Source: Octopus vulgaris
Lineage: Eukaryota
Length of the DNA stretch: 64,000 nt
Reading direction: 5' to 3'
Assembly: GCA_951406725.2 (NCBI GenBank)
Contig: OX597827.1
Span: 82,770,001 to 82,834,000, forward strand
Both the position numbers and the translations under genes were made by a program. This document shows, one piece after another, positions 679 through 54,798 of this stretch. The stretch's first letter is position 1. Every line of letters begins with the position of its first letter. The notes beneath the pieces were generated by a model. The model was not told the origin of the DNA, made no database searches, and was given only the letters and a program-made list of their open reading frames with translations.

Positions 679-736
679 AAAGGTTTCCTAGATTCCAAGA
701 GTGCATGGCTTCAATAAAAGAACTTTGCCAAGAACC

Positions 737-3115
737 ATGTTGGTTTCTATGTATATACTGATATCATATATATACTGTTTATTCCATGTATGCCTGTGTG
801 TTGATATCATTTATTACGTGGAGGAAGAGAAACACTCAGGAAGTTTCATTGGAGATATCGCAATGGATTCACACATGTTCGATGAAATGACATCAGAAAA
901 TAGCGATCTCAGTTTTAGTGAACTGAGGCGGAAAATATCAACGAAGAGTCAATTATTCAATGTGACCAAGAATGGTAAACTGTACACAGCCCAGGTTCTG
1001 GATGCTGAATCCCTTTGTACGGACTATACGGAATGTTTTAGAATCATTAAAGTTGCCATCCGCAAAGCGAAAACCTTTATGAAGATACTCAAAGTTAAAG
1101 TGATTATAGAGGATATCAACGACAATCGACCAGAGTTTCCTGATAAAGAGATCTCGCTTCAGTTTTCTGAAGGTGATGCTGTAGGAATGGTAAAATCTAT
1201 TCCAAATGCCATTGACAAAGATGTCAGCCTCCTCAATTCTCAAATTTCTTACAAATTAAGAAATGAGATTAGGAATGAAAATATATTTTCTTTGTTTGTG
1301 TCTCGAAGAGCTGATGGAATCTCTACTCTTGGAATAGTCTTAGAGAAAAGACTTGACCGAGAAGCAAAAGATAATTATAGAATTCAAATTGTTGCAACTG
1401 ACAAAGGCTCCAAACCAAAGCAAAGTATTTTGAATGTTAGAATTTCTGTAAAAGATGAAAATGATAACAGACCAATTTTTTCCCCAAACATTTACAACAT
1501 TACAATAAAACACACTCACAAATTAAAAACACCTGTGATTCTTTTGTCTGCTGTTGATTTGGACATAAATAATAATGCTAAAGTTACTTATCACTTCAGT
1601 CCGAAAACATCAGACATTGCCAAAAAGTACTTTTTATTAAATTCAAGAACTGGAGAGGTTGTTTTAATACAGAGTCCAAAATTAAATGATAAATTGCCTT
1701 ATAAATTATATATTGAAGCCAAAGATGGAGGTAGTCCTCCACTTACTTCCATAGCAACAGTTCTGGTAAATGTTATCAACCAACACAACAATCCTCCATC
1801 TATTGACATTGATTATGTGTCTGCAATCAGTGACAACACAGCTACCATTTCTGAAGACATCAAAGTTGGTAGTTTCATTGCTTATGTGATGGTCACTGAC
1901 AATGATGTGGGACAAAATGGAGAGGTCAGCTGTGATATCAAAGACAATAAATTTAAACTACAATCCATGGGGCCAAAAGAATTTAAAGTTGTTATGAAAA
2001 GTCAAGTTGACAGGGAAATCAAAGACAACTTCAATGTAACCATCGTTTGTCAGGATAAAGGTTTCCCTTCCCTTAAAGCAGAAAAAGCCTTCTCTATCCA
2101 TGTTACTGACATCAACGATGTACGACCACAGTTTACCAAAGAAACTTTCCAGTTTCTCACCTATGAAAACGAGGAGGCAAATTTCCCAATCGGTTTCGTC
2201 AATGCTACAGACCCAGATCTAGGCTCAGGTGGTCTCTTAACTTACGCACTTATTTCTAACAACAATAATTTTAACTTACCATTCCACATCACTGATTATG
2301 GTTTTATTTCAACATCAGAAACTTTAGACAGAGAACAACAAAATATTTACAAATTTCAAGTTTTGGTTAAAGACAATGGGAAAATAGCTTTAAATAACAC
2401 AGCCAATGTTGTTGTGGAAGTTTTAGATGAAAATGACAATGCTCCCTATTTCACGTTTCCTAGTGTTGACCCGTTTAATCTTGATGTCCACTACCATCCC
2501 CAGAGTAAGAGTGACATCACTGTACTAAGGGCCTCTGACAGGGACAGTGGCAATAATGCCTTTCTTAAGTATGAAATACTAAGTGGCAATAATAAACTCT
2601 TGTTTACGGTCAATCACTACACAGGGTTGTTAGCTTTCTCACGGCCAGTTTACCAAAATGATGTAGGAACTTATAATTTAGTGTTTGCCATCAAAGACAG
2701 TGGCAGTCCGGTTTTGTCTGCTACCACAACTATCTCGCTAACTCTGACTGTTAGTAACAGCACATCAACGATGTTTGTATCGGTCCCTTTACAATCAGAT
2801 AACATGATAAATCTTACCTGGGTTATAATTATAGTCGTGGCAGCCGTGGTGGTGTCTGTAGCGGTTGTCATTGCAATTACTTTGTGTATAATAAGGTTTA
2901 ATAATAATAGAAATGTATTAATGAGACAAGGGGAGGCACAGCCCTACCAATCAAGGACAGAAATGAGACAATTAATTTACCAAACAAATAGCAATCCTAT
3001 TCTTATGGCGAGGAACACGCAACAACTTCTAAACAGAAATTCTCTATCACTTGAATCAACAAACCAGTTTTATCCAGAAATGAAATCCCTCACAGACTGG
3101 AAGAATTCAGCTTTG
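737..3115 (+). CDS. Protocadherin, large first coding exon (signal peptide, 6 cadherin repeats, TM, start of cytoplasmic tail)
   Basis: ORF 701-3124; first in-frame ATG at 737 (accATG) precedes a hydrophobic signal peptide. Cadherin linker motifs DINDNRPEF, DENDNRPIF, NQHNNPPSI, DINDVRPQF, DENDNAPYF, plus LDRE and AxDxD motifs. C-X5-C (CTDYTEC) in EC1 as in protocadherins. TM segment WVIIIVVAAVVVSVAVVIAITLCII. Phase-0 donor TTG|GTAAGA at 3115/3116, just before the ORF stop. Confidence 0.95.
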
Positions 3116-4046
3116 GTAAGATAACTTCTTCATATTTAATCAACTAAAATTAATTTCTTGCTAATTTCAATTCATAATTACAAAAGTCAATTCTCCTTCA
3201 TTTTTCTCTTTTCACTTCTCTCTCTCTCTCTCTCTCTCTTTCTTTTCTCTCCCCTCCTCACTCTTCTTCTCTCTTTCTTTTTCCCTCTCTCTCTCTTACA
3301 CTCTGTCCTTCCTTCTCTTATTCTTCCCTCTTCTTTCTTCTCTCTCCTTCTCTCTCTTTCTCTATGTGCTTCAATACATGTGTATGTGCATGGGGATGTA
3401 TAGATGCCTAGTTAACTATTAGTGTGTGTGTGTGTGTGTGCATGTATATTAAGGTTCCTCAATGCCTGTGTTTCTATATGCATATGTCTGTGTGAGTGTG
3501 GAAGAATGATTGCAAATGAGAGGTGTTTGCAGGAGTAGAATGACTGGATTAATAAACATAAACAAACCCACACACACATAACATGGTCCAATCCAATGAT
3601 AGAAACTTCCAACGGTCAAACAACTGGACTGGGTTGTACAAAACTACTGCACCTTACATTGAGTGCATCTTCTCCGGATCGTTACATAACAACAAATGTA
3701 GCATTCACTTGTTTTACACCCGTTTTTCTATGTCAGCATGGGTTAGACAAATGTATCAATGTGGCTTTGTTTTACAGTCAAATGTCGTCCATATTGTTAA
3801 CCCTTATTTGTTTTTCAAGTATGGTGTTGGTGTCACATAAAGAGCGCTAGTGTTGGTGCTATGTAAAAGGTACTGGTGTCAGAGTACATAAAAAGCATAC
3901 AGTAACTCTGTAAAGTGGTAGGCATTAGGAAAGGCATCCAGCCATAGAAACAAAACAGACAGACTTACCTGCTCTTGTCAAACCACCCAACCCTTGCCAG
4001 CATGGAAAACAGACACCAAATGATGATGATGATGGTGATGATGATG

Positions 4047-4093
<47 letters not shown>

Positions 4094-4415
4094 AAAGACG
4101 ACGATGATGATGATGATGATGATGATGACGACGACGATGATGATGATGATGATGACGACGACAACGACGACGATGATGATGATGATGATGATGATGGTGA
4201 TGAGGATGATGATGATGCACACATACATAGTCATTCATTGATTCAATGTATATCTGGTGTTTAGCTTGTGAGTGGATGAGAGCTGTGTTGAAGCTTAACG
4301 AGAAGTGAGGTATAATTTGGTTAAGAGTGGTATCATCTGCGCATATATGCACATATATCTACACATAAATGATTATATATATATGTATACGCAAAGTATG
4401 GGGGTTTCCCTATTT

Positions 4416-4471
4416 GTCTCTGATGACGGAATATCCCATATTCAAGGATATCCCAGAAACAGCTGTAAGGT
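4416..4471 (+). ncRNA. Minimal type I hammerhead ribozyme motif in the protocadherin intron
   Basis: gtct-CTGATGA-c-ggaatatcc-catattcaa-ggatatccc-a-GAAA-cagctg-TA-aggt. Intact core, 8/9-bp stem II, palindromic ACAGCTGT stem III, GUA site, 4-bp stem I with two G-U pairs. Confidence 0.7.
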
Positions 4472-4553
4472 TTTGAATTTCTTCCTGTAATAATACTGTA
4501 TATGACTTGAGATGTTTGCCTTGCCTTAACCCATGTTGTCCTCTTCAATAATT

Positions 4554-4588
<35 letters not shown>

Positions 4589-4873
4589 GTTTATTGAACC
4601 TATATTTTCCATATTTTTATCTTGTGATACAAGTTTCATTCTACAGTGATCTTCAGGTGAGAACCTCACCTGATGATTGTAGTAACATGAAACATGAGTC
4701 ACAAAAAAAAGTTTAGTTTCCATAAACCATATATTCGAACACATATTGAGCACCTTTCTCACTCTTTAACACTCCAGCATTCATATACGCACACACACAT
4801 ATGTATATATTTACGCACAAACAGACACATATATATTTGTGTATATAAACACACATATTATCATCTCCTTCAG

Positions 4874-5126
4874 TTATACAACCGGCCTATAACTGTGACA
4901 TCATATGGTGAACCAACAGAACAGAATGCAGTGACTGTTGCAAGTTACCTCAGTGACACATTATCAACACGAGGAGGCGGTGGAGGAGGAGGTGGAGGAG
5001 GAGGGGAATGTGAACTGGCATGGAAGGAGAGTCAGTATGAATCAACACGAGGAGGAGGAGGAGGTGGAGTAGGAGTAGGAGAGAATGAACTGGCATGGAA
5101 GGAGAGTCAGTATGAAGAAATTCCAG
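4874..5126 (+). CDS. Protocadherin cytoplasmic exon 2 (LYNRPITVTSYGEPT...ELAWKESQYEEIP)
   Basis: Acceptor tcatctccttcAG at 4872-4873 in phase 0, matching the 3115 donor. Open frame (ORF 4694-5146), GC-richer than its flanks. Donor CAG|GTTGGT at 5126/5127, phase 1. Confidence 0.8.
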
Positions 5127-5167
5127 GTTGGTTAAATTTTTTTTAAATTTCTTTATTCCTTGTTTAA

Positions 5168-5411
5168 TCTATATATATAAAACAAAGGATGTCTGTGTAT
5201 GTATGTGTGTGTCTGTGTGTGTGATATGTATGCATTTCTTCAGTTTTCAACCAATTTTCACCAAACTTTACACACACATTACTTATGTGCCAAGGATGGT
5301 CAGCACTATACTGTCTTGCCCAGAGCTCCTACAAAAAGCAAGAAACTGGAGGAAATGGTGTTTCACACAGGCTTTTCTCTAAAAACTGTAGTTTTCAACC
5401 GATTCTCTCCC
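5168..5411 (+). mobile_element. Non-autonomous Helitron-like 5' fragment
   Basis: A|TCTATATATATAAAA start, GTCTGTGT microsatellite, repeated gttttcaaccrattyt motif. Confidence 0.5.
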
Positions 5412-5506
5412 TTATATATATATATATATGTTATAAACAGACTTGATACCTGCTGACTGCCAGTTTATGCCTTTATACCATTATACATACATATATACAT
5501 ACATAC

Positions 5507-5537
<31 letters not shown>

Positions 5538-5686
5538 CATACATACATACATACATACATACATAATATATACTTACATGCATACATACATTGTTTACAT
5601 ACTTACGTTTTAAATCTTTCAGCATTATATTCCATATACAATGCTTCAAGCATTATATTCCATATACAATGCTTCAAGACATAAAA

Positions 5687-5756
<70 letters not shown>

Positions 5757-5763
5757 CGTATCT

Positions 5764-5816
<53 letters not shown>

Positions 5817-6410
5817 TATATATACATATATACATGTATATATATATATATACATATATATATACATATATATATGCATACATATATATATGGAGGAGGA
5901 GCAACCATCGGTTACAACAACAAGGGTTCCAGCTGATACGATGGACGGAGCACCTTTCAGTTTCCATCTAGCAAATCCACTCACAAGGCTTTAGTCAGCC
6001 AAAGGCTATAGAAGATGCTTGCATAAGGTGCCACACAGCAGGATTGAGCCAGGAACCATGTGGTTGGAAAAAAAACTTCTTACCCCGCAGCTATGTCTTT
6101 TTATGTGCCACTGGTGCTTTTTATGTGCCACTGACATGAAGTGCCAGACAGGCAGGGCTGTACTCTTTCACCACAACTTTCTCTCACTCCTTCTTCCTGT
6201 TTCTGTGGTACCTGTATTTCAAAGGGCCAGCCTTGTCACACTCTGTGCCATACTGAATCTCCCTGAAAACTACGTTAAGGGTACACGGGTCTATGGAGTG
6301 CTCAGCAACTTGCACGTTAATTTCACGAGCAAGCTGTTCCATTGATAGGATCAACTGGAACCCTCATCGTCGTAAGCGACGGAGTGCCACGATGGATATA
6401 TATATATATG

Positions 6411-6638
6411 TTTCTTTACTACCCACAAGGGGCTAAACACAGAAGGGACAAACAAGGACAGACAAAGGGATTAAGTCGATACATCGACCTCAGTGCGTAA
6501 CTGGTACTTAATTTATTGACCCCGAAAGGATGAAAGGCAAAGTTGACCTCGGCAGAATTTGAACTCAGAACGTCAAGACAGACGAAATACGGCTACGCAT
6601 TTCGCCTGGCGTGCTAACGATTCTACCAGCTCGCCACC
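6411..6638 (-). mobile_element. SINE family B copy
   Basis: Reverse complement of 24216-24445. Confidence 0.85.
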
Positions 6639-6642
6639 TTTA

Positions 6643-6785
<143 letters not shown>

Positions 6786-7693
6786 CCATCATGGCACTCC
6801 ATATCCATATCAGCAGTGCATCAGCATGGCCGCAGCTCTGAGCTGAAACTAAAAAAAAAAAATATATATATATATATGTATATATATGTGTGAGTGTATA
6901 TATATATATATATACATATATAGTTATATTATATATAATGTGTGTGTGTGTGTATACACATGTATGTATATGTATATGTATGTATGTTTAGAACCACTGC
7001 CTCTTCAGCTTCAATGTCCAGAGATACTGGTCAATATTTGGTCCACACAATTTCTCACCTGATCACTATCAAACACTGCAATTTTAACCAACTCCACTGT
7101 CCATTATTCACCTTTGACCCATACAGGTCACTGAACTGTTAATACCAGACCATGCCAGATATAAATCATTCTCTTTGATTGTCTGGCTTTCTCCTGGTCA
7201 TTTCACCATTTCTGATATTTTCCTATAGATGTTTCAGGATATATATATACATGTGTGCTTGTGTGTATACATGCATTTTCATGTATATTATATACATACA
7301 CATGCACATACATCTTCATGTATAATTAAATATACACATGTCTTTATGTATTGTTATATGAATATATATTTTTACCTTTAGGTGTTCTCATGTATAATTA
7401 TATAGACACACACACTGTCATGTACAGCTATATACATAAATATTTCTATATTTAGTTATAAATGCATATATTTTCAAATATATAAATGTGTGTGTATGTG
7501 TGTTTGTGCATATGCAGGTATGCTTACATTTTTATGTGTGTGTATGTGTGTATTTCTATATTATTTATACATATACACACACACACACATATATATATGT
7601 GTATCTCTCTCTATATATATATGATGTCCTGTGCCCACATATGCATATGTATATATATATGTATAGATGTATGTACATATATGTGTGAATATA

Positions 7694-11651: not shown

Positions 11652-11820
11652 TTATTACCCCCCCCCTCTTAGTGAAGGCAGGGGTATCGTTTTCAGTTGT
11701 GTTTGTTTGTTTGTTTGACCGTGGAGAACTGCTGGAACTCAAGAACTCAAGAACTGCAGGATGGATTCAGATGAAACTATCAGAGATGCTTGGCCTCACG
11801 ACTGGCTCAAACTGATTAGG
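11652..11820 (+). mobile_element. Helentron/DINE-1-like non-autonomous fragment
   Basis: ttattacccc..ggggt subterminal hairpin, (GTTT)n, then ggatggattcagatgaaact. Confidence 0.45.
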
Positions 11821-12363
11821 CATTTCATCCATCTTTACTTTCTCAGTTCAAATTCTGCTGAGGTCAACGTTGACTTTCATCTTTTCGGGGGTCAATAAAA
11901 TAAGTACCAGCTGAATACTGGGGTCGATGTAATTGGCCTACCTCCTTCCCCCCAAATTTCATGCCCTGTTCCCAAAGCAAAAAAGAATGATAAGAATAAT
12001 CCTTTCTATTATAAGCACAAGGCCTGAAATTTGGGGGGAGGGGGGTAAGTTGATTACATTGACCCCAGTATTCAACCGGTACTTATGTTATCAGCCCCCG
12101 AAAAGATAAAAGGCAAAGTTGACCTCAGCAGGATTTGAACTCCGTACATAAAAACAAATGAAGTGCTACTAAGCATTTTGTCCGTCATGCATTCAGTAAT
12201 AATAACAATAATAATAAGAAGAAGAAGAAGAAGAAGAAGAAGAATAGTAATAATAATAATGATGATGATGATGATGATGATGATGACGACGACGACGATG
12301 ACGATGATGATGATGATGATGATGTTGATGATAATAATAATAATCATCATCATCATCATCGTT

Positions 12364-30363: not shown

Positions 30364-30918
30364 GCCCTGATGCAGTACCAGGCAGTGGCTCTCATGGCTT
30401 CTGATCTTAACTGATTGGAAGTGTTATCATGTACATTGTTTTGTCTTGGTATAAAAGATGGGCTACAGCAAATATTCTGCTCAATACCACAGATTTGCTT
30501 GTCAGTTGTTTGACCTTAACCAGTTGAGCATGTCCCTCAGTGGCTGACGATATGTGCATCTCTGATCACGAGCAGAAGTAGTGGGGGAGCATCATAGCCA
30601 TGTGTTGAGAGGGATTCTTTGGGGTTTGAATAATTCACCTCTAGAAACATGGGTGGTTCTTTCAACATCCTTAAACAACTCTTATTCAGGGACCTTTTGA
30701 GCGGGATGGGCTACTCAACCTGAAGAAATTTCTAAATGGGCCCCACCCGCAAGGTCATGTGCTGTTTATCTTGATATGAGATCACCATGTCGCGCACATA
30801 TGGTTGTGATGCATGTGTCTGGTGTACTCTTATCAGACGGGTAGTCATGATGGGTATATTGGGCTTCATATATTTTACCCCAGTGTCACTTTGATGGCAT
30901 GCACTGCTCTCTCACTCA
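30364..30918 (+). mobile_element. Non-coding ~555-bp interspersed element inserted in (TAA)n
   Basis: Bounded by TAA runs on both sides; a second, reverse-oriented copy lies at 49782-50236. Confidence 0.75.
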
Positions 30919-32460: not shown

Positions 32461-33022
32461 CGATGGTGAGTCAAAAAGTAATGCCATTTTCTTTAGGACA
32501 GGTATAATTACCAACACAGGAACATGTATCATACATCAAAATGAAGCTGGTCCTCTGTGGATCACATCCCTGCTTCTCAACATAGTCACTGTTTCTCTCA
32601 ATAGCAATGTTCCACCTTCGAATGAGAGCATGTATCCCTGCCCCATAAAAGTCTGTTGACTGTTCTTTGAGCCACTTCTTCACTACAGTTTTCACTCCCT
32701 CATCATTAGAATAATTTAGCACCTTCAGACTATCATCTCTTTGGCCCCATGAAAAAGGGTTTGAAAGGCAAAACATTATTCCAATGACAAGGAAGTGAAA
32801 ACTGTAGTGAAGAAGTGTCTCAGAACAGTCAACAGACTTTTACAGGGCAGGGATACATGCTCTCATTCGAAGGTGGAACATTGCTATTCAGAGAAACAGC
32901 GATTATGTTGAGAAGTAGAGATGTAATCCACGGAGGACCAGCTTCATTTTGATGTATGATACATGTTCCTGTGTTGGTAATTATACCTGTCCTAAACAAA
33001 ATGGCATTACTTTTTCCCTCAC
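32461..33022. mobile_element. Fold-back non-autonomous mariner built from two transposase 3' ends
   Basis: ~250-bp inverted arms. The right part encodes (frameshifted) LAPSDYHLFGPMKKGL..AGIHALIRRWNIAI..DYVEK*, a mariner C-terminus. The left arm encodes the same on the minus strand (ORF 32471-32776). Confidence 0.88.
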
Positions 33023-36421: not shown

Positions 36422-36618
36422 GTTGCATTTTGTGTGCTTGGAATAACCCTGAAAATGATACTAAACCACCACCAAATCCACAGTAGAAACATCCCTTGCA
36501 GTGGCAGCGATGACTTTCATCAAAACCCCGAAGTCACCCAAGATATCTGCTGGGTACTGTGAATTTGGTGGTGGTTTAGTATCATTTTCAGGGTTATTCC
36601 AAGCACACAAAATACAAC
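36422..36618. repeat. Inverted repeat with 64-bp arms
   Basis: 36422-36485 and 36555-36618 are reverse complements with 2 mismatches. Confidence 0.9.
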
Positions 36619-38007
36619 CTGTCTCATCACAAATTCATGTCAAACTACATTGAAGTGTCAACTATCTGCCAAATACACATGCACAAGGGACTGACTGAAG
36701 TTAGCGACTTATCAGAGGACTTCAAGTTTAGTGTTGATAAAATAGTGTCTCAAGAAATACCATCAAAGATAAAAGAAATGAAAAGTGTGCTGTGATGCCA
36801 AACGATGAACAATAAGTAGAGAGGGGCAGCAAGTACCATGTTTAGGTAGGGTTGACCTTGCTCCCAGCTGTTGTAGTCACCTCCAGAATCAACACAAATC
36901 TCCCTTAAATCACACTCAACCACCATGGATAACATAATCCTGAGGCTAAACAATAGCAACAACAACATCATATGGTCACTCAACCAACTAGAAATAACAG
37001 CAAAACATCCTTCAGGTTACTCTCAGCCATTTAAATAAGATAAAATTTGATAAAATAGTTCGTTCGTTCATCGTTTAACGTCCACTTTCCATGCTGGCAT
37101 GGGTTGGACGATTTTAACTGAGGACTGGCAAACCAGATGGCTGAACCAGGCTCCAATCTTGATCTGGCAGAGTTTCTACAGTTGGATGCCCTTCCTAACA
37201 CCAACCCTTTCGAGTGTGTAGTGGGTGCTTTTATATGCCACCGTCACAGGGCCAGTCAGGCGGTCCTGGCAATGACCTTGCACTTTTAAAAAGACTGGAT
37301 GACCAAGGCTGGAATGTCTATCATTATTTGCCAGATGCAGAATTAACATAAAAGTGAGGAGTGTACAACATTCAGACCCATCCTACCGTACAGACCCCCT
37401 TATATAGTTAATCTTCACTGTATGTCAGAACATGCAGTATGGCTCTTTACTTGAGAGACGTATGGTAAATCTAGAGATATGGATCTGTGGATTACACACA
37501 CCTATTCCTGCAGCCTTAGTTCTGTTCAATCAGGGCTGACCTAACTTACACAATAATAAGAACAGGGTTACTATTTTTATCCTGTAATCCTCTTTACACT
37601 GCAATGGAATAAGCAGAAAGTGATGGCATACAACATAACTCCCATCAGCTTTACATATTCTACGCTTGATATAAACACACTGAAAAGTCCTTCAGGAGAG
37701 CTGATATGGTTGACATCTCCTACTTGAAATGACTTCTTCATATTATGGCACTAAACAAGAAAACTTTGTCTAACATTCAGAGATCAATTATTATGATTCA
37801 GATGATAATTTTCCAGACAATTAACCTAATCTTCTGAGCGTATAATTACAATATTTACACAACGTATAGAACGGTTCAAACTCTGATTGTCATCAGATGA
37901 CTTATTTCTGGGTTTGTACAGTCAGCCCAGAGATCAAACTAATCGAAATGTAGTGGAAATATTGTAAAATATACACTCTAAATATGAAGCTGTCATCCGG
38001 AAAAAAT

Positions 38008-38079
<72 letters not shown>

Positions 38080-39232
38080 TAATAATAATAATAATAAAAA
38101 CCTTGTTTTTACACCAAGCGACCTAACTACAATTAAGTGGAGAAGGTTGTTTGTTGGGTTTAGACTCAATAAAGTCAACCAGTCTACTACTTTCTACCTT
38201 ACTGAAAAGGTAAAATTGACTGACAACCAACTTCAAAATTAGATGGCAAAGATATAAAGTTGAAATTCATAGCCTTTCATGCAGTGTTTTACTAATGTTA
38301 TTGACGGGGGAAGAGGCGTCTTCAGTGATGAAAAAGCTCTGATAAAAATATTTTTGAATTATATTAACAAAAGACTGCAAATTTTGGGGAATGAATTAAC
38401 AAAAGTATATAACTGGTACTTATTTTACCTTCCCTTTGGTGGAAGAAAGTTAAAAATCATCCCTGGTCAGATTTGAACTCATTTCATAAAAGCATTCCAG
38501 CCTTGGTCATCCAGTCTTTTTAAAAGTATAGAGAACTATTTTATCAAATTTTATCTCATTTAAATGGCTGAGAGAAATCTAAAGGATGTTTTGCTGTTAT
38601 TTCTATTTGAACTCAGGACATAAAGACTAAATAATAGTCTGTCATTTCTGTCAGTTCACTGACCAATTTTTAGCAAAAAGGTTTCTTATAAAAAGGCACA
38701 AGGTCAAACATGATATATGTGGGTATTTGACACACACACATATATATATATATAGGAAAAATAGAAGTTGAAAATGTACTGAGAATAATTAAAATACTTT
38801 TTATTATTATAATATTTAATGCTTTAACCGGTTTCACAATTTACACTGATTGTCAAACAGTTCAAATAGAAAGACATGGCTTATGTTGCAGTCGTCTTGC
38901 TTCTGACTTGTGTTTGAAGCTTGCCATATTTCTATAGGGAGTTCATGGCTCAAATTAGTAAATGTTTTGAATAGGATTTGATTGGTCACATGACTGGCCT
39001 TAGAAAGTTTTGCAGGTTCCCGCTACATCCATGTGTTAGTATCAAGTGACAATGTTTTGTGTGGTAAGTTAAGGCTGACTCGGTTGACTGAAAATATCCA
39101 AACAATCAATGCTCTGAATGTTTTCTGTCAAGTGTTTGTAGAGATAACCTTTTGTACATTTCCCACTGCTACATTCGTGTGTGTGTGTGTATATGTATAT
39201 ATATAATATATGTATATGTATATCTATCTATC

Positions 39233-40130: not shown

Positions 40131-41069
40131 GAGAAGATCCAGTCACAGATGGAAACATGGCAAAATGGTAGTTAAAATAATTGTGGTGGGGATTAAGATA
40201 TATATCTTACATCGGGGTCTCTCTTTCCCATCCTGTTCTTATCAAGTCTCCATCTACTGCCCTCTATGTTACACTCTTCCCTCTTATTCATTATGTACCA
40301 AACAACCTGTGTAATGAAGGATTGTGTTTGATGTGTCTGTATTTATTCCCTCCACCATCGACCCCACCATCATGATACTTATAGAACAAAAAATGGCTCC
40401 CTTCTTCATAGTAAGCCATCAATCCCTGTCCTTCGTGTGAATCTACCCTCACGACCACTGCTCTCTCTTCCCATCACTTACCCCAATGCATCCCTTTTAT
40501 TCTGTTTCCCATGGTACCATTTACTTTTCCTATTCAATCTCCTTACCAATCTTCCTTCCGCTGGTGCCATATATAAATGCACCCAGCTTAAAAAAGGTCT
40601 TTAAAATAATTGGGGTTAGGAAAAGCATCCAACCAAAGAAAACATCCGAAAGTGGAGTGTGCAACAGCAATGACAGCCTAAAGTCTGTACACAGTACACA
40701 GAATGCAGCAGAAAAAGACAGACAAATGAACAGCAAATGAACCCAAAAGAGGAAAAGGTTACATAGGCATCTCAGGAGTAACGTTCGGAAATTTCAGGAA
40801 GCACGGAAATTTCAAAGGATGCACTTTCCTGACAGCTAACAACTAATGTTGGTAATTTATTCCATACTTAGACAATACAAAGCATGAAAATGTTTCTTAA
40901 AGACATGGATACGACATTGTTTTTGATTTTAATGGCGTGTCCACATGGCTTGGAAATATCAAATTCAAAAAGATGGCCAAAGTTATTTCTAAGCTGGGAG
41001 ATAATAGAAATAATGCATTTCTAAATCTCTCAGGGAGATTTATGCAGTAACAGCACAATAAAGTGATGG

Positions 41070-41323
41070 CATGTTGTCAACATAATGTGACAGTCCCATG
41101 AAAGGGAAGAATGCTACTGTTATTTAACCCTAGGAAACACCGTTTCCTGTTGGACTTGAAACATTTCCTGTGTCATTATGTTTTCAATAGGTATTTGTCT
41201 CCCCTTTGAAAACATGAGGACACAGGAAATGTGTGAAGTCCAACAGGAAACGGTATTTCCTTGGGCTAAATAACAGTAACATTCTTCCCTTTCATGGGAC
41301 TGCCACATTAAGTTGACAACATG
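41070..41323. repeat. Long inverted repeat (MITE/fold-back-like)
   Basis: ~115-bp imperfect arms catgttgtcaac...gttgacaacatg around a ~20-nt spacer. Confidence 0.85.
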
Positions 41324-42050
41324 ACCTCAAGGCTTTAGTATGCTGCTGCAAAGAGAAGCAAGTCATTCAAGATATGGCAATCATCATCATCATCATCATC
41401 ATCCTTTAACGCCCACTTTCCATGCTGGCATGGGTTGAACAGTTTGACTGGAACTGGGGAGCCAGAGAGATACACCAGGTTCCAATCTGATTTTGCATGG
41501 TTTCTACGGCTGGATATCCTTCCTAATGCCAACCACTTTGCAGAGTGTGCTGGGTTCTTTATATGTGGCACCAACATAGGTATTAAGTCTGGTGGCTCAT
41601 CTCTGGACAGCTTCTACTCCGTTAATATTCTGGATAAGATGGCATTTCACAGACTGGAGGTGCAAACTGTAAAAATGGACATTTAATAGCTTCATAGTTT
41701 TAAAAAAACGATAGCTGGTGAGTGACAGACAAAAGTTTTACTGGGAAAATATATAAGATATATTGGACTATTTGATGCTTTTAGAAATGTGGACATGCAA
41801 CACAAATCATTGTTGACAGAAATACCAAAGTCACATTGACCCACAGTCTTCTTAATGCCGGTGCTGTTGTTCAATAAAAGAACACACAAACACACACATC
41901 TAAACGTTGAATATGTGTATGTGTGTAGGAATATATATATATGGATGTATATGTATGTGTCATCATCATCATCATCATCATAGCTGTGTATATATATAGT
42001 CAATCCAAACAAGAACAGATAGATAGATACATACATACATACATACATAC

Positions 42051-42479: not shown

Positions 42480-42504
<25 letters not shown>

Positions 42505-45070
42505 TTACACAAACACACTTAATGAATATCAATGCTGAACTCCATGTAGTGATTATTAACGTATCTGTTTTATTCTGTGACATGAAATACAAGTGACACA
42601 TCATAAATTTAATTTGATTAAACTTCTTCCTTGGAAAGCTCTCTCACCATCGGCCAATGCTTCCCTCCTGGCCACAGACCAATGGTCACTTTTTATTAAT
42701 CATTTTCTCAGCCTATAAACACTATATCGTTATTTTCATTATCCAGTATCATAAATTGACTTCTACATCTTTTCTCAACTATTTCTCTGATTTGCTTTTT
42801 TATGGTGTAATCACACGGAAGAAGACTTTGGAGAAGAATTTTTTACTATTGCTCTTAGTTGACTCAGGACTGAAGATTAGAATTGGGGAGACAAGATGTT
42901 GGGAAGCTCAACCAGTGGGCTGAATCAGTAATTCAAGGGACCAGCCATGGTTTAGTCTGGCTGAAAATTATATTAAGGGTGCATGTGTCTATGGAATATT
43001 CAGCCACTTACAAAATAAATAAAATAAGTAGGAGCTTCAATCAATAGCATGAGGAACACCTCCACATAGATCTTGTAAGTATGGATTCCCTGATAACTGA
43101 ACAATATGTGCCCAGAGGGAAAACGGTTTACTCGGTCAATATCTCTGACATGAATGGAATTATAATAACTTACATTGGAGCGACTGGAAAGACTTGCAAA
43201 GAAAGACACATGTAATGCTTGGCTTCGTTTAGAGGTAAGAATGAAATATATGCAACTTCTTTGTCTAATATGGTATGGAACCTTAAACAGAGGAGTGTTA
43301 AGGATCCATAACTGGAGCATTATAACTAAAGTTAAGAAATATAAGGTGTGACACAGCAAATGCAAACTCTGTATTACAGAAAAATAAAAGCTCATAACTT
43401 CAACATTGAACATTTTGAACATTAAAGAAAAAAACCATATTCCTTTGTTTACACAAATAACAGATTAAACTGCAACATTTCAAGTGTAAATCCTTGATGG
43501 ATTCGCCATCTATGTATCCAGGAAAAATTCGAGATATAATGTTAATATATAATCTTTATGGACAAATGCATGTGTTGTGTAAAGAGTGGAATTGATCCTG
43601 GGCAAAGTCTTTCCTCATTTAAAAAAGCTTCAAGTACAAGCATTACCTGGTTTTTAACATCTCTGTTACGTGTTGTATACTATGACTGACCTTAACCAAG
43701 AAAGACAAAGCACTTGATGAAAATTTCCATCAAGAATGAAGGTATGTGTCAGTACAGGTGGTAAGTTTTCTGAACACCTACTGCAAGTGTGTGTGTGTGT
43801 GTGTGTGTGTCTTACACAAACACACTTAATGAATATCAATGCACTCCATGTAGTGATTATTAACGTATCTGTTTTATTCTGAAAACAAGTGACACACATA
43901 AATTTAATTTGATTAAACTTCTTCCTTGGAAAGCTACATCGGCCAATGCTTCCCTCTGGCCACAGACCAATGGTCACTTTTTATTAATCATTTTCTCAAT
44001 AAACACTATATCGTTATTTTTTATCCAGTATCATAAATTGACTTCTACATCTTTTCTCAACTATTTCTCTGATTTGCTTTTTTATGGTGTAATCACACGG
44101 AAGAAGACTTTGGAGAAGAATTTTTTACTATTGCTCTTCAGTTGACTCAGGACTGAAGATTAGAATTGGGGAGACAAGATGTTGGGAAGCTCAACCAGTG
44201 GGCTGAATCAGTAATTCAAGGGACCAGCCATGGTTTAGTCTGGCTGAAAATTATATTAAGGGTGCATGTGTCTATGGAATATTCAGCCACTTACAAAATA
44301 AATAAAATAAGTAGGAGCTTCAATCAATAGCATGAGGAACACCTCCACATAGATCTTGTAAGTATGGATTCCCTGATAACTGAACAATATGTGCCCAGAG
44401 GGAAAACGGTTTACTCGGTCAATATCTCTGACATGAATGGAATTATAATAACTTACATTGGAGCGACTGGAAAGACTTGCAAAGAAAGACACATGTAATG
44501 CTTGGCTTCGTTTAGAGGTAAGAATGAAATATATGCAACTTCTTTGTCTAATATGGTATGGAACCTTAAACAGAGGAGTGTTAAGGATCCATAACTGGAG
44601 CATTATAACTAAAGTTAAGAAATATAAGGTGTGACACAGCAAATGCAAACTCTGTATTACAGAAAAATAAAAGCTCATAACTTCAACATTGAACATTTTG
44701 AACATTAAAGAAAAAAACCATATTCCTTTGTTTACACAAATAACAGATTAAACTGCAACATTTCAAGTGTAAATCCTTGATGGATTCGCCATCTATGTAT
44801 CCAGGAAAAATTCGAGATATAATGTTAATATATAATCTTTATGGACAAATGCATGTGTTGTGTAAAGAGTGGAATTGATCCTGGGCAAAGTCTTTCCTCA
44901 TTTAAAAAAGCTTCAAGTACAAGCATTACCTGGTTTTTAACATCTCTGTTACGTGTTGTATACTATGACTGACCTTAACCAAGAAAGACAAAGCACTTGA
45001 TGAAAATTTCCATCAAGAATGAAGGTATGTGTCAGTACAGGTGGTAAGTTTTCTGAACACCTACTGCAAG
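42480..45070. repeat. ~1.3-kb direct tandem duplication
   Basis: Copy 1 spans ~42480-43787 and copy 2 spans 43788-45070. The 140-aa ORFs at 43000-43422 and 44283-44705 are identical. Confidence 0.95.
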
Positions 45071-47406: not shown

Positions 47407-47684
47407 TTTATATATGGAGAGAGAGAGGGGAGAGAGAGAGATGAAATTAAATAAATGACAAGGGAAGAATACATTAAGCAATGCACTCAACTGAGTGCTT
47501 GTGCATCACCTTATAGCAGAAACAGCTGTAAGCCAATGCAGTACATTGTATAATTTCCTGTTCCCTTATCATTTATTTAATTTCGTATTCTGCTCTGGAC
47601 CCAACATCTGCTTTCTTCTGAAATATGTGTGTATTGAGTTCTAACACCAGGTTATTAGTATCAACATACTTAAGTGAAACAGTG

Positions 47685-49781: not shown

Positions 49782-50236
49782 TGAGTGAGAGAGCAGTGCA
49801 TGCTATCAAAGTGACACTGGGGTACAAATATATGAAGTCCAATATACCCAGCATGACTACTCATCTGATAAGAGTACACCAGGCATATGCATCATAACTA
49901 CATGTGTGCAACATGGTGATCTCATATCAAGATAAACAGCACATGACCTTGCAGGTGGGGCCCAGTTAGAATTTTCTTCAGGTCCAGTAGTCCATCCTGC
50001 TCAAACGGTCTCTGAATAAGATTTATTTATGGATGATGAACAAAACCATGTTTCCAGAGGTGAATTATTCAAACCCCAAATAATTCCTCTCAACACTTGC
50101 CAATGATGCTCCCCAACTGACAAGCAAATCTGTGGTATTGAGCAGAGTATTTACTGTAGGGCCATCTTTTATACCAAGATAAAACAAGGTTCATGATAAC
50201 ACTTCCAATCAGTTAAGATCAGAAGCCATGAGAACC
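49782..50236 (-). mobile_element. Second copy of the (TAA)n-associated element, with an internal deletion
   Basis: Reverse complement matches 30387-30918 (tgagtgagagagcagtgcatg...agaagccatgaga). Starts at a (TTA)n run. Confidence 0.75.
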
Positions 50237-50247
50237 ATATCATTACT

Positions 50248-54071: not shown

Positions 54072-54332
54072 GCAAACACACACACACACACACATACACA
54101 TACGCAAACACATACATTCATTTACATACGCATAAGAGGAAGATGTATCATCATCATCATCATCATCATTTAGCGTCCGTATCATCAGAGATTAAAGATA
54201 TCTAGTCATAGTGGAATAACATCACATTTTGTATGTGTGTGTGTGTGTGTGTATAGATATATATATCCATACATATATATATATATATATATATCCATAC
54301 ATGTATATATAAATGTATATATATGTATGTAC

Positions 54333-54385
<53 letters not shown>

Positions 54386-54416
54386 TTATTTAAAGCAGCA
54401 GAAAATTCAACAAAAT

Positions 54417-54454
54417 TTGTTACTGTGAGTTTCTCGTTGCCGTTCATCAGACAG
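54417..54454 (-). ncRNA. Minimal type I hammerhead ribozyme motif (left arm of palindrome)
   Basis: Reverse complement reads ctgt-CTGATGA-acggcaacga-GAAA-ctcacag-TA-acaa. Intact core, 3-bp stem I, stem III ACT-cac-AGT. Confidence 0.72.
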
Positions 54455-54477
54455 TTTTTGCTAGTTTCTAGCAGAAA

Positions 54478-54515
54478 CTGTCTGATGAACGGCAACGAGA
54501 AACTCAGAGTAACAG
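54478..54515 (+). ncRNA. Minimal type I hammerhead ribozyme motif (right arm of palindrome)
   Basis: ctgt-CTGATGA-a-cg-gcaa-cg-a-GAAA-ctcagag-TA-acag. Intact core, perfect 4-bp stem I, GNRA-capped short stem II, self-complementary stem III. Predicted cleavage after 54511. Confidence 0.8.
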
Positions 54516-54617
54516 ATTTTGTTGAATTTTCTGCTGCTTTAAATAAAGCATATTACTCTACCACTGGTATTTGAGTACTCTTTTTTCCACCTTGTTTCAC
54601 ATTTATGTGTTTACTCC

Positions 54618-54667
<50 letters not shown>

Positions 54668-54677
54668 AATACATACA

Positions 54678-54746
<69 letters not shown>

Positions 54747-54798
54747 ATATACGGACGTTAACGATGATGATGATGATGATGATACATATATATATATG

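Follow-up and report, generated by a model that had tools for sequence, protein, structure and literature searches.

Insertions of EN+ Penelope-like elements (PLEs) are the closest described counterparts of the locus reported here. According to Craig et al. (2021, PMC8557442), they often carry an inverted 5′-truncated copy at the 5′ end and a tail at one end, they are biased towards TA, and microsatellite targets hide the target duplication. In Adineta PLEs, head-to-head pLTRs, a palindrome at the junction and a tail on one repeat are typical, and have been ascribed to self-priming (Arkhipova et al. 2013, PMC3846280). The protein of a lizard PLE is described to cut AT-rich DNA in vitro and to extend both strands; it has two internal start sites for reverse transcription, whose spacing equals the tail, and its substrate is unprocessed RNA (Frangieh et al. 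2024, PMC11167929). How head-to-head copies and one-sided tails originate is described as still unexplained (PMC8557442).

PLEs also contain hammerhead motifs. Pairs of minimal hammerheads on opposite strands, ~100-700 bp apart, were interpreted as truncated PLEs in 2014 (Cervera and de la Pena 2014, PMC4209133); such pairs have been known since then and are not new here. The family described below may already be among the hammerhead and PLE families given in the supplements to PMC4209133 and PMC8557442.

We analyzed a 64,000-nucleotide stretch of Octopus vulgaris DNA (the window), in which a palindrome at 54382-54550 contains two opposing hammerhead motifs. In our view the locus is the stump of one integration by PLE machinery into a TA microsatellite, a reading to which we give a probability of about 0.8. 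Its geometry matches the published signature of PLE insertions: a truncated copy is inverted, only one of the arms has a tail, the target is TA, and the hammerhead is minimal and of the dimer type. Five structural features of PLEs occur together, namely the hammerhead, the inverted copy, the one-sided tail, the TA target and a dispersed family of 5′-truncated copies.

As in the insertions described in PMC3846280, PMC8557442 and PMC11167929, a 5′-truncated copy is inverted head to head, the ATG lies at the hammerhead, and the copies appear to derive from uncleaved RNA. The tail that is present in one copy only, the palindromic junction and the AT-rich or (TA)n target that hides a duplication are shared with the cases in PMC3846280 and PMC8557442. 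In contrast to these insertions, the copies are cut down to ~85 and ~154 nt, nothing is left of the ORF body, and the tail measures 69 nt instead of the 30-40 nt in the published cases. With the metazoan PLE hammerheads described so far (PMC4209133; Lunse et al. via PMC6765202) the motifs share the type I topology, the CUGAUGA/GAAA/UH core, a short proximal stem I, a stem III suited to dimers, dispersed high copy number and dual motifs on opposite strands. They differ from them in an A.A mismatch at 10.1-11.1, and stem II has 2 bp, whereas the schistosome and fly motifs have a long helix II. The pair is also closer together than the range given for dual PLE motifs, and fully complementary (PMC4209133). 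The differences from known PLE cases thus seem small: a tail of 69 nt, a stem II of 2 bp below a purine mismatch, and joints that cluster at the 5′ strand of stem I.

Like the locus, non-LTR retrozymes (Cervera and de la Pena 2020, PMC7229834; bioRxiv 10.64898/2026.07.22.740005) are short, non-coding, PLE-related and equipped with a type I hammerhead. However, they are described as head-to-tail tandem repeats of 150-450 bp with a circular RNA, whereas the copies here are arranged head to head or terminate in (TA)n. We rejected a retrozyme as candidate, with no tandem unit at the locus and no head-to-tail ('goes back') joint among the joints listed for the family.

An asymmetric palindrome between two microsatellites

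The original prediction of a near-perfect palindrome with 83-bp arms and a 3-nt loop is borne out. Its 169 bp consist of two arms of 83 nt each (54382-54464 and 54468-54550) around the loop TTT (54465-54467), and three arm pairs are mismatched (54458T/54474G, 54425G/54507G and 54417T/54515G). In ten doublet shuffles of the repeat-masked window, the longest arm with at most 3 mismatches reached 16-18 nt. The hairpin fold has an energy of -137.3 kcal/mol (z = -25.9), which none of 200 shuffles equaled. Hence, a chance origin of the palindrome is excluded. Besides the two arms, the 64-kb window contains no further copy of the arm sequence.

The left arm is an inverted 5′-truncated copy of the end of the element (minus strand) and stops at the short, tail-less 3′ end of the repeat family. 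The right arm is a direct 5′-truncated copy of the same end (plus strand), as self-alignment of the arms and the contigs of the family show. Unlike the left arm, it is followed by 69 unique bases (54551-54619), the tail, which end at the long 3′ end of the family. The junction loop is flanked by two copies of the self-complementary 4-mer CTAG (54461-54464 and 54468-54471). A perfect 8-bp inverted repeat (54470-54477 with 54528-54535) offers an alternative outer helix to the extension of stem I in the plus copy.

The position between TG and TA microsatellites is also confirmed. In the left flank (54252-54383), (TG)16 at 54352-54383 adjoins the arm and is followed by a TA-rich tract; this flank is probably part of the microsatellite target. 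The right flank is (TA)n at 54620-54751, the likely target. Because both flanks are microsatellite, a target-site duplication cannot be read at the locus.

A short plus-strand frame of 29 codons and a stop (54485-54574) has its ATG inside the hammerhead core. It is possibly the start of the element ORF, as in other PLEs, and retention of an ORF is not expected in a stub this short. The frame has no true homologue, which is a weak negative for a 45-residue query. One candidate, P0002 (E 1e-8), was rejected: it is a bacterial-type Ig-repeat protein without a local alignment, an artefact of summed repeats.

The window is dense in microsatellites, a load that together with the protocadherin frame points to a cephalopod, probably an octopus. 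It holds an 810-codon single-exon frame of the protocadherin type with five cadherin repeats (692-3124, plus strand), and a tandem duplication of ~1.28 kb with 97.8% identity (42504-45069), either recent or an assembly artefact. Other local palindromes lie at 11808-12180, 36422-36618, 41051-41345 and 32466-33022; the last measures 557 bp, is 88% alike in self-alignment, has no Pfam match, and contains a frame that we take to resemble the C-terminus of a mariner transposase. Together with inverted pairs (30386-30917 with 49783-50237; 36985-37316 with 38493-38609), this makes the window rich in potential dsRNA.

A high-copy repeat family with two 3′ ends

The stretch is present, in whole or in part, in 20 of the 24 listed public sequencing runs (11 studies, 5 organism labels), none of which is on record as RNA. 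Four runs (X4, X3, X1 and X15) were mapped as contigs to 54445-54634, 190 nt in which 20 nt of the mirror arm precede one arm with its tail. On this piece 7,578, 4,431, 4,554 and 566 contigs were placed in the four runs. The repeat family whose end the arm represents is therefore very high-copy (4,431-7,578 contigs in the three large runs). The exact patterns of the window had no matches in four scans of genome-contig and viral-contig collections. We found no description of this family in the literature; Repbase/Dfam and supplements lay beyond the search, and the family may be catalogued there.

Family copies have two recurrent 3′ ends 69 nt apart, both against (TA)n. The short end appears as (AT)n loose ends behind 54553 in 35, 38, 35 and 3 contigs (X4, X3, X1 and X15). 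The TAT at 54551-54553 also fits a TA repeat, and the loose ends therefore mark the end of the left arm at 54550. The long end, at ~54619-54633, is that of the right copy: the loose ends that follow 54623-54633 are rich in TA or consist of CA repeats, and family depth runs on across 54551-54619. On the other side, a different shared upstream sequence stands before 54466 in 13, 9 and 2 contigs (X4, X1 and X15). Since other copies extend upstream of 54466, both arms are 5′-truncated. How far upstream the copies can be followed is bounded by the length of the loose ends (median 15-25 nt).

Few copies are palindromic. Summed depth at the center (54461) is 0.04-0.14% of the depth of the arm body, a value that is biased low by the edge of the mapped stretch and that is a depth and not a copy number. 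Yet, a center depth of 720-3,500 far exceeds the ~5-40 of the shallowest listed contigs. Hence, the junction point recurs, and several to many loci may share it. Seven other distinct joints are listed, all with one side at 54465-54477 and the other side at 54501-54600, and one contig each of X3 and X1 has a loop-less center that is 7 nt shorter. For most joints the support is a single contig per run, and the direction of the joints is ambiguous in part. One of the five joints tested is in the pairing register of stem I, and four of the five are without a strong micro-repeat match.

Within the hammerhead region, variants of at least 3% occur at 3 of 20 unpaired and at 0 of 34 paired positions (p = 0.046). 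The core is not strictly conserved across the family, because U4 itself is C in 12-48% of summed family depth. Both arms carry the identical state at all three polymorphic hammerhead sites. The two changes that break stems of the minus copy (54417 and 54425) are missing from the family variants of at least 3%, and so look like private decay.

Hammerhead motifs and the predicted read-through hairpin

A search pattern derived from the locus motif itself, CTGANGA-N5-30-GAAACTCANAGTA, has exactly two matches in the window (+54482-54511 and -54450-54421) and none in 100 shuffles. A type I core (C3 U4 G5 A6 N7 G8 A9, G12 A13 A14 A15.1, U16.1 H17) is present on both strands. The original prediction of an intact core and pairable stems I-III on each strand holds for the cores and, with caveats, for the stems: stem II has just 2 bp, stem III forms in practice between two molecules, and the minus copy is damaged.

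The plus-strand minimal type I hammerhead covers 54470-54523. Its stem I (54470-54481 with 54512-54523) consists of 4 bp, an A.A mismatch and 7 bp, with a pair probability of 0.996. The core CUGAUGA (54482-54488) is followed by stem II (54490-54497), 2 bp and a GCAA loop below the A.A apposition at 10.1-11.1, by GAAA (54499-54502) and by the self-complementary stem III (54502-54510). The predicted cut after 54511 had been placed correctly, with GUA at 54509-54511. Its distance to the short end would be 39-42 nt, and to the long end 108 nt; the hammerhead is near the 3′ end of the repeat. No loose end lies at the predicted cut site (54512) among the 24 loose ends listed (463 others are unlisted).

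Stem III of the plus copy is self-complementary at eight of nine positions. Its pair probability in the monomer is 0.0005, which makes it practically dimer-only, and its self-duplex is predicted at -7.4 kcal/mol. According to these folding models, the plus copy has the dimer-type design described for PLE hammerheads, which fits the earlier suggestion that these are minimal type I hammerheads of the Penelope type whose stem III is self-complementary. Hammerheads of this type are described as inactive as monomers and weak as dimers (PMC4209133; review PMC6765202). The minus motif (54409-54462, with the core at 54450-54444 and GUA at 54423-54421) is degenerate. The change at 54417 costs it one pair of stem I (3 bp and 7 bp, pair probability 0.65), and the change at 54425 weakens its stem III self-duplex to -0.1 kcal/mol.

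Both arms have A.A at 10.1-11.1 and lack the closing pair of stem II, be it G10.1-C11.1 or any other; G10.1-C11.1 is described as highly conserved in PLE hammerheads (PMC4209133). The mismatch does not look like decay, since 10.1-11.1 is unpaired in seven of nine aligned motifs and also in other hammerheads of the window. Across the family these positions are A, G or T, and T at 11.1, which gives A-U, makes up 5-21% of depth. A U.U mismatch at the base of helix II is known from one axolotl retrozyme family (PMC7229834).

The proposed Rfam check turned out negative. Hammerhead models had no match in the whole window at gathering score, and no hammerhead family was among the 61 matches in 54300-54700 up to E = 10, most of which were to generic miRNA-hairpin models. 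We rejected the miRNA identity that the latter suggest, since they match any hairpin and stay below gathering score.

Further hammerhead-like motifs occur in the window. A single stub of the PLE type (4408-4552, plus strand, core at 4420) has a long stem II under a C.A mismatch and a fully palindromic stem III, and ends ~85 nt before a TA tract at 4553. Another hammerhead-like stub (56400-56290, minus strand, core at -56391) shares its stem III with the 4420 copy; its stem II is 7 bp long below an A.A mismatch, C stands in place of G12, and the stub lies ~60 nt before a TA tract. Both belong to another family than the palindrome arms. An older head-to-head pair of hammerhead-like cores (4620-4710, within 4582-4710) has a 3-nt loop and arms that are ~69% alike; it is probably decayed, and its stem I pairs poorly. 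A decayed palindrome (47443-47584, 69%) has the same stem III motif, GAAA with a palindrome, at 47519 and no recognizable first core box.

When metagenome contigs were scanned for the core plus the stem III of the locus, seven loci were found, five of them independent (L004 equals L006; L003 and L007 are 80% alike). L002 carries a tight head-to-head palindrome of two hammerheads (295-439) with arms that are 82% alike, L004/L006 an opposite-strand pair ~250 nt apart, and L001 a tandem pair. The geometry thus recurs with unrelated flanking sequence. L003 (922-957) and L007 (795-830) have the same hammerhead at the matching place near a fibronectin type III exon. The insertion appears to be old and kept in two related genomes, because the two contigs, 80% alike over 1.7 kb, share it. 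Neither RT nor GIY-YIG had a match in 75 frames of at least 55 aa from six of the seven related loci and in six frames of the window.

The 5′ strand of stem I, which lies outside the search pattern, ends in GT opposite AC in six of the seven metagenome matches. Five of the seven motifs have 4-5 pairs in stem II (shuffle p 0.008-0.05 each), and the remaining two have 0-1. Both features, free of the constraints of the pattern, support the structure. For covariation we used nine motifs, leaving out L006 and, for L001 and L004, the second copy. In stems I and II, 70% of cells are paired versus 23-65% in slid controls, and five pairs are changed on both sides versus 0-3. Among 500 shuffles, 38-73 reach the observed value on four measures and 455 on a fifth, so that the motifs exceed the slid controls but not the shuffles.

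The earlier suggestion that a read-through transcript would fold into a hairpin that sequesters the ribozyme agrees with the folding model, where the hairpin is 85 kcal/mol ahead of the fold constrained to the hammerhead. In prefix folding the hairpin zips up as soon as the second arm appears. Because head-to-head copies put the antisense arm first in the read-through RNA, the ribozyme arm would be zipped up while it emerges. The antisense arm is made first from either side, which speaks against a ribozyme presented by whichever strand is transcribed.

The folding models do not favor editing as a switch either. The energies are model values with crude inosine stand-ins, which bound the effect generously. 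When all 23 A of the left arm are made unpairable, the hairpin is still ahead by 46 kcal/mol, and it stays ahead by 16 kcal/mol when the A outside core and stems of the right arm are made unpairable as well. The proposal that folding or A-to-I editing switches cleavage is thus not supported, with the hairpin 16-46 kcal/mol ahead. Heavy editing would strike the catalytic adenosines as well. In X15, which may be RNA or DNA, 54445-54465 has no cover, and the share of A>G at two listed sites is not above that of the DNA-like runs, in contigs, which drop rare variants; we give neither observation any weight. Most likely, judging from these folds, both ribozymes would be locked in the read-through hairpin and the locus would be catalytically silent. 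For a ribozyme to be free, transcription would have to start at the center and a partner molecule would have to be present. By analogy, the hairpin is a plausible ADAR substrate if it is transcribed. Octopus is described as heavily hyper-edited, with palindromic repeats as good ADAR targets, and octopus repeats and lizard Penelope copies are among the edited sequences (PMC5625713).

Origin of the palindrome and its meaning

From the two 3′ ends, the family, the asymmetry and the target, we infer which enzyme acted, in which order the events took place and where the mirror arm came from. A PLE endonuclease would have cut the TA tract. Reverse transcription would have begun at the long end on one side and halted after ~154 nt. 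The template was presumably uncleaved RNA, because both arms span the cut site; it may have come from a full PLE or from a short non-autonomous derivative. The mirror arm, which ends at the short end, would stem either from priming on the other target strand, which gave a second first strand, or from the first strand folding back. Both strands would then have been joined head to head at the CTAG micro-palindrome, and later drift would account for the three changes in 83 nt between the arms. On this account, the palindrome would be a by-product of integration. The head-to-head arms here and the further joints in other copies fit the idea that this is the inverted 5′ copy usually seen in PLE insertions. 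Several points count against the PLE reading: the lack of an RT or GIY-YIG match in the frames searched, the lack of a true homologue of the short frame, the 69-nt tail, the missing G10.1-C11.1, the recurrent center and the support of most joints by single contigs. The depth of the center weighs against a by-product because a mobilized palindrome would produce it too.

Alternatively, a single tailed copy could have been inserted first, and the host could have added the mirror arm later by fold-back during replication or break repair, without PLE machinery. The other local palindromes at 11808-12180, 32466-33022, 36422-36618 and 41051-41345 are made of unrelated repeats, and so this genome makes or tolerates inverted copies. 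The TAT past 54550 provides microhomology to the TA tract, and such an event would also fit the identical states of the arms at all polymorphic hammerhead sites. However, the mirror arm stops exactly at the second 3′ end of the family, the best-supported internal 3′ loose end among those listed (in four of four runs), and the identical geometry is standard for PLE insertions. We therefore consider a host fold-back improbable.

The original prediction saw the palindrome, with its tail, as a small non-autonomous element: copied as a unit, it would present a ribozyme whichever strand is transcribed, and folding or editing would act as the switch. Contigs that span the center are indeed deeper than single-copy-like contigs in three of the four runs, tight palindromes of a similar kind occur in another organism (L002) and, in older form, at 4620-4710, and the hyper-editing of Octopus with palindromic repeats as ADAR targets (PMC5625713) would suit such a switch. 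But the center at ~0.1% of body depth, joints that vary down to a loop-less center, and other copies that continue upstream into different sequence speak against a mobile unit. The ribozyme part fares no better: the hairpin is favored by 85 kcal/mol, would form cotranscriptionally and stays 16-46 kcal/mol ahead under extreme in silico editing, the minus copy carries two private stem-breaking changes, and stem III requires a second free copy. We regard a palindrome that moves as a unit as quite improbable.

Long inverted arms, a TA target and the 557-bp mariner-like palindrome at 32466-33022 would also fit a MITE or fold-back DNA transposon with a hammerhead-like motif that arose by chance in its terminal inverted repeats. 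This is very improbable: the family is mostly non-palindromic (center ~0.1% of body depth), the motif, stems I and II and the palindromic stem III match PLE hammerheads, and the unit has no terminal inverted repeats because the right copy extends beyond the mirror by 69 nt. Known artefacts include near-perfect palindromes with tiny loops, and no listed contig crosses the whole of 54445-54634, but a fold-back chimera of assembly or library is highly improbable given three arm differences (two outside the common variants of the family), arms that end at two different natural family ends, and a center covered by contigs in three runs from three studies.

In each of the seven listed joints, one of the two sides falls within 54465-54477, either at stem I or immediately 5′ of it, which could mean that they are not random. 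One joint in the register of stem I, and a CTAG center with and without the loop, hint at a role at the level of DNA. It is conceivable, though we think it unlikely, that the head-to-head joints of the family are non-random and that the complementarity of the hammerhead lets nascent first strands fold back or anneal, sealing the inverted copy. If this is true, DNA-level fold-back would give the conserved and nearly inactive fold of the PLE hammerhead a second role in integration. It would also make the antisense RNA template proposed in 2013 unnecessary. On the same unlikely reading, the family might be a short element of ~170 nt, hammerhead plus tail, that was amplified in trans to thousands of copies.

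The single locus is of little weight: as a stub in decay it repeats an insertion geometry that is already known, and its use is as a marker. If transcribed, hairpins of this kind would add to the dsRNA load on ADAR. Short copies in the thousands, 3′ ends at two sharp positions and what looks like a hot spot for joints would make questions about PLE insertion and hammerheads countable from this family in one good assembly.
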